Shown: positions 13,629-23,819, counted from the stretch's first letter. The stretch is 23,882 nt of DNA from a virus (IMGVR_UViG_2585427765_000009), one strand, 5' to 3'. Notes: generated by a model from the letters alone, not told the origin. Program-made: numbers and translations.

Positions 13629-14039
13629 ATGGATCAGGTAGTCATTTTTAAACAAATATTTGATAAAGTTCGAAACGATTTAAACTATCAATGGTTTTAT
13701 TCTGAGCTAAAACGTCACAATGTCTCACATTACATTTACTATTTAGCTACAGATAATGTTCATATTGTATTAAAAAATGATAATACAGTGTTATTAAAGG
13801 GCCTAAAAAACATTGTGTCTGTCAAATTTTCAAAGGATAGGCATCTTATAGAAACGACCTCTAATAAGCTGAAATCCAGTGAGATCACATTTCAGGAATA
13901 CAGAAGAAACCTTGCTAAAGCAGGAGTTTTTCGGTGGGTTACAAATATCCACGAACAAAAAAGATATTACTATACCTTTGATAATTCATTACTCTTTACT
14001 GAAAACATACAGAGCACATCACAAATATTTCCACACTAA
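13629..14039 (+). CDS. Hypothetical protein, possibly DUF1398/YbcV-like
   Basis: 136 aa from ATG at 13629 with SD GGAAGG; only plus-strand gene in the phage; AT-rich; family guess from memory only. Confidence 0.45.
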
Positions 14040-16351: not shown

Positions 16352-16378
16352 AATATAAAAAGCTCGCCGTAGCGAGCT
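16352..16378 (-). terminator. Predicted intrinsic terminator between cargo lipoprotein genes and holin
   Basis: Minus-strand AGCTCGC-TACG-GCGAGCT followed by TTTTTATATT. Confidence 0.55.
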
Positions 16379-16503
16379 AATAAAATGTATTTCTCTGATA
16401 TTATGTTTATTTGTATTAGCTCAGACTTGACATCACAGGTTTCGTATATAGAACATCATCAAATCTGTCAGTTTGCTATGAATGAGATATAGTAATTGAA
16501 GAG

Positions 16504-16899
16504 CTAACCTCGCATGTCAAAGCCAGATTTCTGAAAATCTCTGTAGACTTCCGGATTGTTGAAGGCCGGAAATTTGGCTTTATGAGCTGCGGACTTTATC
16601 GCTTCGCAATAGGCTTTATCACCGTTACTGGTAGATATTTTTAACGCCGTGCCATCCTGAGAGAATTCCATATGCAACCTGCATTTTTTCCCTTTCCAGT
16701 TATGCGGCTCATCAAGTTTGGCATTAATTGCAGCTCTGATTCCCCGCGCTTGCGCCCCCCATTCATCCTGATCATCCCAGCGTCCTGAACTGCAACTACC
16801 TGTAGCAGTAGTTTTGTGGCAATCTGAAGGGTGTAAAGGTGTGCATCCCGCAACAAAACCGACCCAAAAAGTCAACATAACGATTTTCTTTAATCCCAC
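16504..16899 (-). CDS. Lipoprotein with TolA domain III-like C-terminal domain (paralog 2)
   Basis: GTG start with SD GAGGAG; lipobox VAGC; C-terminal KGKKCRLHMEFSQDGTALKIS...YCEAIKSAAHKAKFPAFNNPEVYRDFQ aligns with the TolA C-terminus. Confidence 0.75.
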   Translation of the reverse strand: MGLKKIVMLTFWVGFVAGCTPLHPSDCHKTTATGSCSSGRWDDQDEWGAQARGIRAAINAKLDEPHNWKGKKCRLHMEFSQDGTALKISTSNGDKAYCEAIKSAAHKAKFPAFNNPEVYRDFQKSGFDMRG

Positions 16900-17049
16900 T
16901 TCTTGCTCCTCAATCCATTAAAATCTCAGCAATAGTAGTTGTTACGTCCGCCACTGGCTCAGAGCTGACTATCCGCTAAATTTAGCTCAGTGCCGTAGTT
17001 GTGTCAGAACAAACCTAAGCCGAAACCGTTTATTACAAAACAATAAATA

Positions 17050-17478
17050 TCAGGGTTTAAAATCCAGCACCCCATTTTGAAATACTTTATATACTTCCGG
17101 CGAAGGGGGGGCAGGTATATCAGCATTCTTTATCGCATTCATCGCTTCACGACATAAATCGAGGTCTCCACTTTCTCTTTTAACCTCCAGTAGAAGGCCA
17201 TTCGGGGCCATATGCATTCTCAGTGTACACTCTTTTCCTGAATACTTACTCGCATCCCCGAACTGTTTTTCGATGGCGCTCTTGATTTGATGGGCATACA
17301 GACGGATATCCTCACTAACATCAGAAGTACGTTCAGATGAACTCACATACTGTGTCTCTATTGCTTTATCGGAGTAATATGATGTACGGTCATGATAATT
17401 TGTCGATACAGCATCAGTGCACCCGATAATAATCCCACTAATAATCAACGTAAGAATTGATGCGCTACGAAAACCCAT
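17050..17478 (-). CDS. Lipoprotein with TolA domain III-like C-terminal domain (paralog 1)
   Basis: Lipobox IIGC; QIKSAIEKQFGDASKYSGKECTLRMHMAPNGLLLEVKRESGDLDLCREAMNAIKNADIPAPPSPEVYKVFQNGVLDFKP versus TolA QIKSAIESKFYDASSYAGKTCTLRIKLAPDGMLLDIKPEGGDPALCQAALAAAKLAKIPKPPSQAVYEVFKNAPLDFKP (recalled). Confidence 0.8.
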   Translation of the reverse strand: MGFRSASILTLIISGIIIGCTDAVSTNYHDRTSYYSDKAIETQYVSSSERTSDVSEDIRLYAHQIKSAIEKQFGDASKYSGKECTLRMHMAPNGLLLEVKRESGDLDLCREAMNAIKNADIPAPPSPEVYKVFQNGVLDFKP

Positions 17479-17507
17479 TTTTCCTCACATATGTCATATA
17501 GTAAAGG

Positions 17508-17537
17508 ATTATATATACCGTTGTTTTGGATGCTCAA
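17508..17537 (-). promoter_or_regulatory. Candidate sigma70 promoter for TolA-like lipoprotein 1
   Basis: Minus-strand TTGAGC, 18 nt spacer, TATAAT, about 30 nt upstream of the start codon. Confidence 0.4.
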
Positions 17538-18011
17538 ACAGCGAATCAGATCAAATAAAACGCACATTTGTTAACATTTACACAAAGTCTGCGTGGGATA
17601 TTCTGAAAGAATATCCATAATGTAGAGAGAATCTATTGAAGTGCATGGTGCCGGGTGCCTCCCGGTGAATTCAGTACCAGCACCTGAATCCGCGATTATC
17701 CCATATACCTACTGGCTGATTGCCCCTCCGCACAGGGGGATTCACCATGCCAGTTTCTTTTAACAAACTCCCCGCAAACCAGACAACAGTCAACCGCCTG
17801 AATTGTGAAGTATTTAAAAATTTCTCCCGCTAACTGATACCCGGCTAACAGTCTGGCGTTTTCTTTTTCAGCAACGGGAAAGCAACAACCACCACACCCG
17901 CCACCAGCACACCGTCAGCCAGCACTGACATTATCCGGCTGCTGCAATGCCATTCACAAAAACAGTAAGCAATCACTTTTTACCGTAACAGGTGATAATC
18001 CAGATATGTAT

Positions 18012-18365
18012 CTACCCCAGGTGAGTAATCCGAAGTTCATCCATACCACAGGTCCTGGCTATTCTGTTGTACTCCTGAACAAGAGCAAATAATTCTGAAT
18101 TAGCAACCATGAACTCATCGCAAACCCTCTGTATAGCATCACTATTCAGAATAATAACGTCTCTTCCCGAAAGACGATCAGGAGTACAAAACAAAACTGT
18201 CAAACGGCTGAAGGCCTTTGCTCGTGCTGCATTGACTATATCAATACGCTGCCTAAGGATGAAACACCCCGACGCCTCATCAATATTCACTCTACCCACA
18301 CCATATGAATGATAAATATTTAATGCTGAAAAAACCATTAGACGGTATAACAAACACTCAATCAA
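18012..18365 (-). CDS. Hypothetical protein in cargo locus downstream of tRNAs
   Basis: 117 aa ORF in AT-rich DNA; start uncertain (TTG 18365 or ATG 18338); no clear RBS. Confidence 0.35.
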   Translation of the reverse strand: MIECLLYRLMVFSALNIYHSYGVGRVNIDEASGCFILRQRIDIVNAARAKAFSRLTVLFCTPDRLSGRDVIILNSDAIQRVCDEFMVANSELFALVQEYNRIARTCGMDELRITHLG

Positions 18366-18475
18366 TACTTAACAGAACTTTTATTTTTGACAAACATATA
18401 ATATTTTCAACAAGATCCTGAGCCAAGTATATTTCAGTATAAGGCTCTGCCGGAAGGAATCTGGAAGAATGAATA

Positions 18476-18552
18476 TGGCGCGCTGTACTGGATTCGAACT
18501 AGTGACCGATTGCTTAGAAGGCAATTGCTCTGTCCGGCTGAGCTAACAACGC
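18476..18552 (-). tRNA. tRNA-Arg, anticodon UCU
   Basis: 77 nt cloverleaf folded by hand: acceptor GCGTTGT/ACAGCGC, D-stem GCTC/GAGC, anticodon stem ATTGC/GCAAT, loop CTTCTAA, T-loop TTCGAAT, CCA encoded. Confidence 0.8.
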
Positions 18553-18652
18553 TGAATACCGATAATGGACCGCCATCGGGGACCCGCCCCCGCACCAACA
18601 ACCCTGTTATCGCGTCGTCTGCTCTTCCTGATAAGCTAATGGCGGTTTGTGA

Positions 18653-18728
18653 TGGTGGCCCTTGCTGGATTTGAACCAGCGACCTGGCGATTATGAGTCG
18701 CTCGCTCTCACCACTGAGCTAAAGGGCC
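18653..18728 (-). tRNA. tRNA-Ile2, anticodon CAU (lysidine type; software may call it tRNA-Met)
   Basis: 76 nt; near-identical to E. coli ileX as recalled; acceptor GGCCCTT/AAGGGCC, anticodon loop CTCATAA, T-arm GCTGG-TTCAAAT-CCAGC. Confidence 0.8.
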
Positions 18729-18761
18729 GTGAGCAGAATAATAACGGTCCGTAATTAATTC

Positions 18762-18791
18762 CGCAATAAAAAACCCGCTCGGCGGCGGGTT
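18762..18791 (-). terminator. tR'-like intrinsic terminator of the late leader transcript
   Basis: Minus-strand AACCCGCCGCCGAGCGGGTT followed by TTTTTTATTG, ~45 nt downstream of the candidate pR'. Confidence 0.6.
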
Positions 18792-18838
18792 GTAGAAACT
18801 CTTCTAACGTCAGGCATAAAAAGCCCATCATTATGACG

Positions 18839-18866
18839 AATTTACCACAGATTCCGGAAAAATCAA
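18839..18866 (-). promoter_or_regulatory. Candidate late promoter pR' (with Q-utilisation region)
   Basis: Minus-strand -35 TTGATT, 16 nt spacer, -10 TAAATT (lambda pR' is TTGACT / TAAATT), immediately after the Q stop. Confidence 0.55.
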
Positions 18867-18871
18867 CCTTG

Positions 18872-19693
18872 TTACCTAGTTACCTTTTTTAACTGCCGCT
18901 CAGCCCATGCTTCTTCAATATCAAACCGGGTCACCAGCGCATCATAGAATTTCTTAACTGTTTTTTCCCATGACGCGCGTGTTATCTGGTTTGTCACCTC
19001 GCATATAGCATTAAATGCCTCCGTTGATGGTAGTCTTTCATAGCCACGACCACCACAACGCTGGCAGTCTCTGATAACAGGCATACCACGTTTTACCGAC
19101 TCTTCACGGTGAATGGCGACACCACGCCCACGGCAATCCTTACAGGCGGTGGAAACCTCACCCTTTCCGCCACACTCCGGACAGGCAACTTTTACCACCT
19201 CCCTGACTTTTTTCCATTCTTCCCAGTAAGACGGATACACACCTTTCGTACACTTTGCCCATACCGGCGGCTTACCATCCGGATACTGGACCTTGTTTGT
19301 AAAAACTACGCTTTCAATAAATTTTTCCCCATAGCAACAAGGGCACTGCTTTTTACTCGCTGCGCTGCGGGCATAATCCTCAAAAGCGTACGAAGCCATA
19401 ATGCGCATCACTACCGGTTTTATTTCTGCCGGAAGTTTTCTCAACGCCGCCACACGATCGCACCGACTGAGTGCATAATCTGCCAGTAATTCTGTTGCCC
19501 GCGCCCTGTCATTCATACTGATGCCCATTTTCCCCAGGAACGCAGAAAACCCCATCTCAGCCCGATTCTGTGTCATGCCCTGCGCGGCCATCACATCAGT
19601 GATACTCAGCGCATCTTTTGACGTTGAGGCCGATGCATCGGTCAGGCAAGGGGATTTTGGGGAGTAGTATTTCGGTAAATCTTCCAGTTTCAT
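18872..19693 (-). CDS. Late-gene antiterminator, Q-like (Cys-rich, zinc-binding type)
   Basis: Position between rusA and pR'/tR'; CxxC clusters CPCC, CPECGGKG, CKDCRGRG, CQRCGGRG; ATGA overlap with rusA stop. Confidence 0.65.
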   Translation of the reverse strand: MKLEDLPKYYSPKSPCLTDASASTSKDALSITDVMAAQGMTQNRAEMGFSAFLGKMGISMNDRARATELLADYALSRCDRVAALRKLPAEIKPVVMRIMASYAFEDYARSAASKKQCPCCYGEKFIESVVFTNKVQYPDGKPPVWAKCTKGVYPSYWEEWKKVREVVKVACPECGGKGEVSTACKDCRGRGVAIHREESVKRGMPVIRDCQRCGGRGYERLPSTEAFNAICEVTNQITRASWEKTVKKFYDALVTRFDIEEAWAERQLKKVTR

Positions 19694-21864: not shown

Positions 21865-22020
21865 TTACTCCTCAGGTTCGTAAGCTGTGAAGACAGCGAC
21901 CTCCGTCTGGCCGGTTCGGATTCGTACCTCGCAGAGGTCTTTCCTCGTTACCAGTGCCGTCACTATGACGGTTAAACAGATGACGATCAGGGCGATTAAC
22001 ATCGCCTTTTGCTGCTTCAT
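21865..22020 (-). CDS. hok: Hok/Gef-family type I toxin (HokD/RelF-like)
   Basis: MKQQKAMLIALIVICLTVIVTALVTRKDLCEVRIRTGQTEVAVFTAYEPEE, near-identical to Gef/HokC as recalled; SD AAGGAGAAG; ORF-track start at 22077 is an in-frame upstream ATG. Confidence 0.9.
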   Translation of the reverse strand: MKQQKAMLIALIVICLTVIVTALVTRKDLCEVRIRTGQTEVAVFTAYEPEE

Positions 22021-22278
22021 AGCCTGCTTCTCCTTGCCTTTCGGCACGTAAGAGGCTAACCTAGATTTGCCGTTCATAGATTGAGCCTCAGATTAATGTT
22101 AAACGTCTTGCAGGACGCGTAATGTTAACTGGGGCTTTTCTCTATCTGCCTTTGGTGTTCATGCCCGAGGCAGATAGCCTCAAGCACCCGCAGTCATTCT
22201 ACTTAACTAAGATTTCCCCGCAAACCGTTTTTGTCCAGCACAATAAATATCCAACTAAACCAATGGAGTTCGCTGTAT

Positions 22279-22671: not shown

Positions 22672-23484
22672 CTAGACACTTCCGAGCCGCTGATAATATT
22701 GTTTTTCGTATTCAGTTGGTGGCATATGATCACTCGAACCATGCCGACGCTTACTGTTATAAAACATTTCGATGTAATCAAAAATATCACCGCGAGCTTC
22801 TTCTCGCGTTCCGTAGATCTTTTTCTTTATCCGTTCACGTTTCAGTAACTGGAAAAAACTTTCTGCGACTGCGTTGTCATGACAGTTACCGCGACGGCTC
22901 ATACTGCCCTCCAGCCCGTGTGATTTCAGGAACGACTGCCACTCATAGCTTGTGTACTGACTGCCTTGATCAGAATGAACCAGCACCTGCTTTTGAGGAT
23001 TACGTCGCCACACGGCCATCAGAAGTGCATTCAGGACAATATCCTTTGTCATCCGGGGCTGCATTGACCAGCCAATAACTTTGCGCGAGAACAGGTCAAC
23101 AACCACAGCCAGATACAGCCAGCCTTCGTGAGTCCGGATGTAGGTGATGTCCGTTACCCAACGCTCATCCGGTGCTTCCGGGTTGAACTGCCGCTGGAGC
23201 CTGTTGGGCGTCACGATGCTGGTTTCACCCTTACGTGCCCGTGGGCTACGGTACCCGACCTGAGCCCTTATCCCGGCACGCTTCATCAGTCGCCAGACAC
23301 GGTTAACTCCGCACTGTTGTCCGGTATCCCGCAGGTCGAGGTGGATCTTGCGATAACCATAAACGCAACCCGACTCCAGCCAGAACTGCTTTATCAGCCC
23401 CGTCAGTCTCAGGTCAGCATGATGCCGCCGTGAATCCGGCTGCTGAAGCCAGGCGTAAAAACCACTCGGATGCACATCCAGCAC
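22672..23484 (-). CDS. IS3-family transposase orfB (DDE domain); true N-terminus supplied by frameshift fusion with orfA
   Basis: WVTDITYIRTHEGWLYLAVVVDLFSRKVIGW...HSDQGSQYTS...NAVAESFF motifs. Confidence 0.85.
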   Translation of the reverse strand: MLDVHPSGFYAWLQQPDSRRHHADLRLTGLIKQFWLESGCVYGYRKIHLDLRDTGQQCGVNRVWRLMKRAGIRAQVGYRSPRARKGETSIVTPNRLQRQFNPEAPDERWVTDITYIRTHEGWLYLAVVVDLFSRKVIGWSMQPRMTKDIVLNALLMAVWRRNPQKQVLVHSDQGSQYTSYEWQSFLKSHGLEGSMSRRGNCHDNAVAESFFQLLKRERIKKKIYGTREEARGDIFDYIEMFYNSKRRHGSSDHMPPTEYEKQYYQRLGSV

Positions 23485-23540
23485 CCGACAAAGCAGTCGG
23501 ACAGGCCAGCAATGGGTGTTGTCACGGATAAAGGCGTACC

Positions 23541-23819
23541 TCAGTCGGACAGCTTTGCGAAGTACGCCGCGGCTTTTTTTAATATGTCCCGTTCGTCGGT
23601 AACCCGCTTCAGCTCTTTCTGGAGGCGTCGGATCTCAGCCTGAGCGTCTGACTGGACTTTATTGGTTGAGGAATCCGGGCCATATGCCTTTATCCAGGCA
23701 TAAAGACTGTGGGTGGTGATACCGAGACGTGTTGCCACGCTGGAAACAGAATGGCCGCGATCAACAACCTGTTTTACCGCTTCAATTTTAAACTCTTCGG
23801 GATAACGCTTACCGCTCAT
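23541..23819 (-). CDS. IS3-family transposase orfA
   Basis: HTH region plus leucine-zipper-like C-terminus ending AAAYFAK; SD GAGAGGTG; ORF-track GTG at 23825 or ATG at 23819. Confidence 0.85.
   Translation of the reverse strand: MSGKRYPEEFKIEAVKQVVDRGHSVSSVATRLGITTHSLYAWIKAYGPDSSTNKVQSDAQAEIRRLQKELKRVTDERDILKKAAAYFAKLSD

Follow-up and report, generated by a model that had tools for sequence, protein, structure and literature searches.

The locus examined here lies immediately downstream of the Q antiterminator gene in a viral sequence of 23,882 nucleotides (IMGVR_UViG_2585427765_000009, referred to in full as the window), and is best read as two independent modules joined end to end: a late-leader unit and a tRNA cassette, the latter very probably transcribed from a promoter of its own. 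We assign this reading a probability of about 0.8. It is based on sequence features, homology, conservation and codon statistics, and within it we infer the start sites, the pause, Q loading, the efficiency of termination and the expression of the tRNAs. The locus represents lambda-like prophage wiring of an already described kind, the components of which were already annotated or published. The order Q, late promoter (pR'), terminator (tR'), tRNA-Ile2 and tRNA-Arg(UCU), which the original prediction had proposed for positions 18476 to 18866, was borne out at those coordinates on the minus strand, as was the absence of toxin genes, since neither Pfam nor the PGAP annotation revealed stx genes in the window. 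In the interpretation of this layout, the proposal of rare-codon supply also stood, whereas those of an Stx-type Q unit, of exclusive dependence on Q and of prophage induction did not.

The window is an exact match to positions 2388733-2412614 of the E. coli E203449 chromosome (NZ_CM128603.1), in reverse complement. The minus strand carries every feature of the Q, leader and tRNA locus and all genes of the region. On this strand, hokD/sok is followed by an operon (a hypothetical protein, DUF968, RusA and Q), a short non-coding leader, the two tRNA genes, an AT-rich cargo region, a P21-type holin, DUF1327, lysozyme and Rz, and subsequently by terminase, portal, head and tail genes. A 601-bp segment around the locus occurs in 100% identical copies in many E. 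coli chromosomes, and at least 80% of this segment was found in at least 777 of 5426 complete genomes. The deposited genome of phage mEp460 exhibits 98.5% identity over the leader, tRNA and cargo region.

The Q gene (18872-19693) is intact in the window and codes for a protein of 273 residues, annotated by PGAP as "antitermination protein", which matches the Pfam family PF03589 (E 6e-55), as does lambda Q itself. Comparison with lambda Q (phmmer, PDB 7UBM) yielded an E value of 1.5e-40, wherein residues 1-113 and 182-273 align to lambda residues 1-113 and 116-207, respectively. The intervening 68-residue insertion (residues 114-181) contains extra CXXC motifs. The zinc-binding CXXC...CXXC motif is present as CKDC...CQRC, aligned with CRDC...CGRC in lambda. 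A promoter-like site (TTTACA-16-TATACT, 10/12) heads the four-gene Q operon, 1.77 kb upstream of Q. In its placement, this candidate promoter resembles the start mapped for Gifsy-1 antQ, which lies 1.6 kb ahead of that gene (PMC4825925).

Directly downstream of Q lies the candidate late promoter pR' (18839-18866). Its -35 hexamer TTGATT (18866-18861) and -10 hexamer TAAATT (18844-18839) occupy exactly the sites that had originally been predicted, and are separated by a 16-nt spacer (18860-18845). The -10 element is of the extended type (TGgTAAATT, with TG in positions 18847-18846), and the -10 region, GGTAAATT, is identical to that of lambda pR'. Alignment with lambda places the predicted start at A18832, followed by a -10-like sigma70 pause-inducing element and GGG (18824-18832); the element with its GGG reads AATGATGGG here and AACGATGGG in lambda, where it occupies +1 to +9. 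The corresponding arrangements are TAAATT-N6-AATGATGGG and TAAATT-N6-AACGATGGG, respectively, with a 6-nt discriminator in both, and the window contains a single copy of the composite motif TAAATT-N6-AAYGATGGG, compared to 0.02 occurrences expected. At the level of the sequence, a promoter with a -10-like pause element thus appears to be present directly downstream of Q. The hexamers of pR' match only 8 of the 12 sigma70 consensus positions and by themselves are not above chance. A generic sigma70 scan listed neither pR' nor the promoter of the tRNA cassette (8/12 each), and both promoter calls therefore rest on homology and conservation. In the case of pR', it is the homology to the lambda promoter, the uniqueness of the motif and its conservation behind distant Q proteins that raise it above chance. 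In lambda, the -10-like element at +1 to +6 is reportedly re-bound by sigma70, as described by Ring, Yarnell and Roberts in 1996 and in later structures of the Ebright laboratory; this re-binding is said by the same sources to cause the promoter-proximal pause at +16/+17, the site of Q loading.

The conservation of this unit was assessed in a survey of 96 loci that code for relatives of this Q, comprising 82 with the close Q allele and 14 with distant homologs. The sequence AACGATGGG(C) occurs in 13 of the 14 distant loci, including that of a homolog of 48% identity, among the divergent leaders recovered. All of the divergent Q-family leaders have an extended -10 that fits TGnTAnnnT. The order of elements (extended -10, 6-7 nt, AACGATGGGC, a first small hairpin and, within about 55-67 nt, a second, GC-rich one with a T-run) is kept behind Q homologs of only 40-48% identity in at least seven genera, the hosts being E. 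ruysiae, Shigella, Kosakonia, Mangrovibacter, Phytobacter, Buttiauxella, Atlantibacter and Entomohabitans. In the group of close alleles, represented by 29 distinct haplotypes, 3 of the 32 columns of pR' are variable. A18831 and T18827, which correspond to the two most important positions of a -10 element, are invariant in this group, and the third base of the element is C, T or A. The spacer TTTCCGGAATCTGTGG, a candidate Q-binding region, is nearly invariant within the Q allele group and is unlike the lambda spacer in sequence; binding of Q in this spacer is therefore assumed.

The original prediction placed a strong terminator about 45 nt downstream of the promoter, and a terminator scan together with the hairpin energy identified a strong intrinsic terminator, tR' (18766-18791), the hairpin of which begins 47 nt past the -10 hexamer. 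Its 7-bp stem (18791-18772; AACCCGC/GCGGGTT, five G-C pairs) encloses the loop CGCCGA, with a predicted energy of -10.6 kcal/mol, and the tail, UUUUUUAUU, provides a U6 tract. We accept pR' and tR' as real in view of the homology to lambda and the conservation behind distant Q proteins; they would delimit a predicted leader RNA that extends from 18832 to about 18768, a length of about 65 nt. A hairpin followed by a T-run was found in all 18 divergent leaders examined, with stems of differing sequence. RNAalifold, applied to the same 18 leaders, maintained the 5' hairpin, without compensatory changes in it, and did not align the terminators. Rfam matches of the leader to Trp_leader (25.6 bits), isrK (18.1 bits), rseX and others were sub-threshold and driven by the terminator, and were discarded.

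Besides being a by-product of the switch, the predicted pR'-tR' transcript might act in trans as a small RNA, produced constitutively in lysogens in the manner of StxS or IsrK. Precedents for such a role are StxS, one of the short terminated pR' transcripts that act as sRNAs in Stx phages (PMC7547250), and the placement of IsrK directly downstream of Gifsy-1 antQ (PMC4825925). The leader also has a typical sRNA shape, in which an A/U-rich unpaired stretch separates a hairpin at the 5' end from a U-tailed terminator. Across enterobacterial genera, its first 27 nt are preserved even where the Q proteins share only about 40% identity, and the conservation of the segment from +10 to +27 (GGGC-UUKUAUG-YC-CGUU) exceeds the needs of the pause element, although it might instead reflect a role of the DNA in pausing or Q loading. 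The weak isrK alignment spans exactly the leader transcript, but its 18.1 bits compare with a gathering score of 50 and derive mostly from the terminator; no curated Rfam sRNA family matched the leader above threshold, and isrK is retained solely as a positional analogy. Moreover, the leader displays no compensatory covariation, the z-score of its fold is only -1.6, and the equivalent leader of the K-12 Qin prophage has no annotated RNA. On balance, we regard a trans-acting role as unlikely, although it is the alternative that survives best.

The tRNA genes lie 37 nt past tR' on the same strand. Both were accepted by ARAGORN and by the Rfam tRNA model: the tRNA-Ile2 (CAU) gene of the ileX/ileZ type (18653-18728; 72.5 bits; tRNA-Ile in PGAP) and the tRNA-Arg (UCU) gene of the argO type, which reads AGA (18476-18552; 62.5 bits; tRNA-Arg in PGAP). 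The CAU anticodon of tRNA-Ile2 reads AUA after lysidine modification, and the pairs C4-G69 and C5-G68 are two of the determinants for this modification, according to published work on TilS. The CAU tRNA possesses both pairs, as in K-12 ileX, which it matches in 68 of 76 positions (one of the differences being a compensated acceptor-stem pair); the corresponding pairs of the elongator metT are U4-A69 and A5-U68. The body of tRNA-Ile2 is identical to that of ileZ from the Stx2a phage, with differences confined to the flanks, and the UCU tRNA matches Stx2a argO in 75 of 77 positions. In the latter gene, a G-to-A change at 18500, unique to this haplotype among the 29, turns the fourth T-stem pair into an A.C mismatch, which is flagged by Rfam and may weaken this copy of tRNA-Arg. 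Across the 29 haplotypes, the variable columns amount to 2 of 76 (2.6%) in tRNA-Ile and 3 of 77 (3.9%) in tRNA-Arg, compared to 13-35% in the non-coding flanks. The two genes are intact, and this pattern indicates purifying selection on them.

The 100 nt between the two genes (18553-18652) were identified, by alignment with Stx2a argN, phiP27 and mEp460, as a degenerate relic of argN, the tRNA-Arg(UCG) gene of Stx2 phages. The relic preserves the acceptor stem and D-arm; its anticodon arm has been rewritten with 4 additional nt, and its T-loop consensus has been lost through slippage in a G-tract. ARAGORN (with default and relaxed thresholds and with introns allowed) and Rfam (E<=1) made no tRNA call in the relic. 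The relic shows 25 variable columns out of 110 (22.7%) among the 29 haplotypes, 12 of these columns being indels, including slippage in G-tract length. It thus varies like the non-coding flanks while lying between two conserved genes, and is consequently considered pseudogene-like. The intact argN of the Stx cassette is absent here and the same degenerate state is found in phiP27 and mEp460; intact three-tRNA cassettes occur behind this Q allele at other loci. The identity of this spacer had been overlooked in the original prediction. An alternative reading of the spacer as an unusual tRNA was rejected, there being no ARAGORN call with relaxed thresholds or introns.

A putative promoter of the cassette (18738-18766) comprises a -35 hexamer TTGCGG (18766-18761), a 17-nt spacer and a -10 hexamer TATTAT (18743-18738). 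It ends 9 nt before the 5' end of tRNA-Ile, and its predicted start, at about 18731/18730, would be 2-3 nt ahead of that end. None of the 76 cassette copies departs from the TATTAT hexamer, the TTG of the -35 hexamer or the 17-nt spacing, although the copies represent 19 upstream variants and at least five upstream contexts that are unrelated to one another, among them those of phiP27 and an Stx2a phage; the spacer sequence and the context, by contrast, drift. The left edge of the cassette, formed by the -35 hexamer, adjoins the U-tract of tR' in the window. In the Stx2a phage Sp5, a primary start site that drives the homologous tRNAs has been mapped (PMC7547250). Since a conserved promoter travels with the cassette and the Sp5 start is mapped, the tRNAs are probably independent of Q; the sequence indicates that the cassette very probably has its own promoter and is transcribed without Q in the lysogen. 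The promoter and terminator scan revealed no convincing terminator after tRNA-Arg, and the cargo slot may therefore also receive some low-level transcription from the cassette promoter.

These observations bear on the original view that everything downstream of tR' depends on Q and on prophage induction, i.e., that the locus is a single transcription unit whose tRNAs and downstream genes remain silent until induction and Q-mediated antitermination at tR'. The proximity of the tRNAs to tR', only 37 nt away on the same strand, is compatible with such a unit, and Q-modified polymerase would certainly transcribe them. For the tRNAs themselves, exclusive dependence on Q is nevertheless probably wrong, in view of the conserved promoter that accompanies the cassette and the primary start mapped for its Sp5 homologs. 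For the TolA-like cargo genes (see below), it is opposed by flanking promoter-like sites and a dedicated terminator, and sRNAs of the STnc100 family, one of which is encoded in the cargo slot, have been described as prophage-encoded sRNAs. Induction, for its part, has no immunity region left on which to act. An IS3 element (22672-23819) upstream of hokD directly adjoins the host gene rspB, and the PGAP annotation contains no remaining integrase, repressor, N, O, P or replication genes. A second IS3 element splits the tape-measure gene, and the tail genes carry on past it. The prophage is, judging from its gene content, defective, having lost its immunity and early region to IS3. Because this region is gone, induction cannot operate here in cis, and Q could be supplied only from a local promoter or in trans; in this strain, the late switch may never fire. 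The single transcription unit is accordingly improbable, more so than an sRNA role of the leader, and we retain the reading of two adjoining modules.

The cargo slot (16361-18475), which corresponds to the position of stx in Stx phages, was analyzed by Pfam, PGAP, Rfam and the promoter and terminator scan. Downstream of tRNA-Arg, it contains an unannotated ORF of 108 residues (18012-18338), a DUF3927 peptide (17845-17976), an STnc100 sRNA (17587-17779; 112.9 bits in Rfam, against a gathering score of 47) and two genes with a TolA C-terminal domain (17050-17478 and 16504-16878), accompanied by promoter-like sites. A terminator (16378-16361) is located just ahead of the holin gene. The 108-residue ORF is taken to be real because homologs of 54-60% identity exist; 4 synonymous and 8 non-synonymous changes were counted in it.

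The original prediction also suggested that the tRNAs, which decode the rare AUA and AGA codons, support the translation of AT-rich cargo. Codons were counted in the PGAP genes of the cargo and lysis regions (815-923 codons, the upper value including the unannotated ORF) and of the head and tail regions (3128 codons). The ATA codon occurs 11-14 times in the former and 5 times in the latter (odds ratio 8.5-9.6; p about 4e-5 to 3e-6), and AGA 11-14 and 9 times, respectively (odds ratio 4.7-5.3; p 7e-4 to 9e-5), an enrichment that rests on small counts of 11-14 codons per class. AGG is not enriched (6 in cargo and lysis versus 14 in head and tail genes; odds ratio 1.5; p 0.43). The nin/Q genes are likewise ATA-rich, and Q itself includes three codons each of ATA, AGA and AGG. 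Rare-codon supply is thus supported, since the codons concentrated in the adjacent AT-rich genes match the specificities of the two tRNAs. The tRNAs might instead be leftovers of integration or recombination sites, or counter-defence spares that stand in for host tRNAs cleaved by anticodon nucleases, with no part in rare-codon supply. The cassette is clearly mobile among unrelated phage backbones, and a preprint reads tRNA matches near prophage sRNAs as integration hot spots; however, the genes are full-length, lie within the late region rather than at the prophage ends, occur also in free phage genomes, and possess a promoter and signs of purifying selection. Together with the exact fit of the codon enrichment to both tRNA specificities, AGG being unaffected, and with nothing in the present analysis that ties the tRNAs to any nuclease, this makes such origins very improbable, and supply of rare codons remains the preferred explanation.

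The following mechanism would account for these features. RNA polymerase would start at pR' near A18832, and sigma70 would re-bind the -10-like sequence AATGAT(GGG), producing, by analogy with lambda, a pause at about +16/+17. Without Q, transcription would stop at tR' after about 65 nt. Q would bind a site between the -35 and -10 hexamers and load onto the paused polymerase, and the modified enzyme would then read through tR' and all later terminators, into the tRNA cassette and the cargo, lysis, head and tail genes. The mobile ileZ-(argN)-argO cassette would have been inserted such that its own promoter adjoins the U-tract of tR', its middle tRNA, argN, having decayed to a pseudogene. In the lysogen, the cassette would very probably be transcribed from its own promoter, in addition to being transcribed by Q-modified polymerase, and would supply tRNA-Ile2 (AUA) and tRNA-Arg(UCU) (AGA) for the neighbouring accessory, lysis and nin/Q genes.

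Among known systems, the late-leader unit is closest in kind to the Q/pR'/6S RNA/tR' unit of lambda. The two share the Q family (PF03589), an identical -10 region (GGTAAATT), AAYGATGGG at the same spacing, the placement directly after Q and an intrinsic terminator downstream. They differ in several respects: lambda Q is without the 68-residue insertion; the -35/-10 spacer is 16 nt here and 17 nt in lambda, with unrelated sequences; the leader measures about 65 nt, compared to 194 nt in lambda; the hairpin energy is -10.6 versus -26.3 kcal/mol; and, unlike in lambda, a tRNA cassette follows tR'. Given this relationship, the hairpin at 18791-18772 can hardly be a mere terminator of the Q (nin-region) operon with no promoter in between, since the lambda pR' -10 and the pause element are spaced exactly as in lambda and persist behind distant Q homologs, even though the hairpin lies only 80 nt past the Q stop codon and the promoter hexamers match just 8 of 12 consensus positions; moreover, the two roles are compatible, because in lambda, too, tR' is found at this position with respect to Q.

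The relationship to Stx phages is confined to the second module. The tRNA genes of the ileZ-argN-argO cassette of Stx2 phages (933W/Sp5 type) and of the ileZ-argO cassette of phiP27 (Stx2e) are 88-91% identical at the DNA level to those of the window. The Stx2-phage cassette has the same promoter, TTGnnn-17-TATTAT, and likewise lies after the late terminator region and ahead of the cargo and lysis genes, and phiP27 shares the form of two tRNAs plus relic. In comparison with the Stx cassette, argN is degenerate here, and the stx operon downstream is replaced by the 108-residue ORF, DUF3927, STnc100 and the TolA-like genes. The Q protein of Stx2a phages belongs to PF06530, a family unrelated to PF03589, and the Stx2a pR'-tR' leader (StxS) is 258 nt long (PMC7547250), compared to about 65 nt here. 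The cassette adjoins tR' here, but in Stx2a phages and in phiP27 it is preceded by a DNA methylase gene or by what remains of one. Of the proposed reproduction of the Stx-phage late-leader layout, the homology of the tRNA cassette could thus be upheld, while Q, pR' and tR' proved to be of the lambda type; because the Q families are unrelated and only the cassette is shared, the layout as a whole is analogous rather than homologous. The locus is thus a recombinant of a lambda-type late switch and an Stx-phage tRNA cassette.

The K-12 Qin prophage (hokD-rem-ydfU-ydfT(quuQ)-cargo-essQ-ydfR-rrrQ-rzpQ) exhibits the same gene order, the same neighbourhood on the rspB side and the same type of leader, but its Q is only about 40% identical, it lacks the tRNA cassette and its cargo consists of cold-shock genes. 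In several lambdoid phages that lack stx (SfI, Sf6, ST64T, PS3 and 21), Q is immediately followed by one or two tRNA genes, for which the same rare-codon rationale has been advanced, although the tRNA species, Asn and Thr, differ from the Ile2 and Arg of the present cassette (PMC3636060). Literature searches on ileZ/argN/argO and on the leader sequence returned nothing relevant. In our survey, the cassette is present in 76 of the 82 loci with the close Q allele, and any tRNA in just 1 of the 14 loci with a distant Q, which argues for an old leader unit and a later addition of the cassette. At a few loci, this Q allele is followed by variants with Thr, Gly or Lys tRNAs. The cassette adjoins tR' directly in 66 loci, and in about 10 it is found about 1.6 kb downstream, past a methylase gene.

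The main worth of the locus lies in its correct annotation, as it belongs to a Qin/mEp460-like late region carried by many E. coli. The corrections to the original prediction concern the lambda-type Q, the promoter of the cassette, the argN pseudogene in the spacer and the defective state of the prophage. The locus illustrates a late switch of the lambda type recombined with a tRNA cassette of Stx phages. If the leader proves to be an sRNA, the principle exemplified by StxS and IsrK, wherein antiterminated phage promoters serve as sources of sRNAs, would extend to common non-toxigenic prophages of E. coli, of a family with members in 777 or more of 5426 complete genomes. The host probably has the rare-codon tRNAs at its disposal constantly and not just after induction, which matters for predicting the expression of AUA- and AGA-rich accessory genes and of Q. 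In toxigenic phages, the same cassette and promoter lie upstream of stx, and read-through from this promoter could aid basal expression of the cargo slot.

The prophage is a remnant at the Qin site with a nearly complete late region. Two copies of an IS3-family element are present (22672-23819 and 1-1089); one of them takes the place of the entire early and immunity region and adjoins the host gene rspB, and the other interrupts the tape-measure gene. Also directly adjoining the IS3 copy at 22672-23819 is the hokD toxin gene with its sok antisense RNA (21865-22189, minus strand; Rfam score for sok, 110 bits). In the Qin prophage of E. coli K-12 the relBE genes lie 5' of hokD, whereas they are absent from the window. 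A DUF1398 gene (13629-14039) is situated between the Rz and terminase genes on the opposite, plus strand, with a GC content of 31% and many ATA and AGA codons, and represents a further accessory insertion.

Relative to lambda Q, the Q antiterminator (18872-19693, minus strand) carries a 68-residue insertion at residues 114-181. Because the insertion holds additional CPCC and CPECGGKG motifs, its sequence suggests a second, DnaJ-like zinc centre. The K-12 homolog QuuQ (250 residues) possesses a shorter form of this insertion.

The cargo slot between tRNA-Arg and the holin gene contains both protein-coding genes and an sRNA. In the position occupied by stx in Stx phages there is an unannotated 108-residue ORF (18012-18338, minus strand). 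Each of its 12 sequence variants is uninterrupted, and homologs of equal length share 54-60% identity with it. The ORF is without a Pfam domain; its GC content is 42%, and it contains three codons each of ATA, AGA and AGG. Two genes encoding TolA C-terminal domains follow on the same strand (17050-17478, the first of which is a pseudogene according to PGAP, and 16504-16878), each preceded by a promoter-like site (region 16361-17537, minus strand), with a strong terminator (16378-16361, minus strand) 3' of the pair. This combination is a typical "moron" arrangement.

The prophage sRNA STnc100 lies at 17587-17779 (minus strand) and is strongly matched in Rfam, i.e., 112.9 bits against a gathering score of 47. 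It is absent from the PGAP annotation, which has a pseudo-ORF on the opposite strand instead. No convincing sigma70 promoter was found just upstream of the sRNA. A recombination breakpoint, common to at least 27 related loci, falls within STnc100 at about position 17642.

Within the tRNA cassette, the 100-nt spacer (18553-18652, minus strand) between tRNA-Ile2(CAU) and tRNA-Arg(UCU) is homologous to the tRNA-Arg(UCG) gene argN of Stx2 phages but has degenerated, with length slippage of a G-tract in the T-arm. Phages phiP27 and mEp460 both carry this same relic. At position 18500 of tRNA-Arg(UCU), a G-to-A change that occurs in only one of 29 haplotypes, that of the window itself, turns the fourth base pair of the T-stem into an A.C mismatch, which may weaken this copy of the tRNA.

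Among the surveyed loci that encode relatives of Q, two related loci contain tandem tRNA cassettes (CAU-UCU followed by CAU-UCG-UCU), and a few carry Thr/Gly/Lys tRNAs 3' of the same Q allele. The site directly 3' of tR', the late-leader terminator, thus seems to be a hot spot at which tRNA cassettes are exchanged. In a preprint, tRNA matches near the prophage sRNAs PasA/C/D and STnc100 were interpreted as integration hot spots (bioRxiv 10.64898/2026.05.13.724894). The tRNAs less than 1 kb from STnc100 in the window belong to the phage itself and lie in the interior of the prophage, within its late region.
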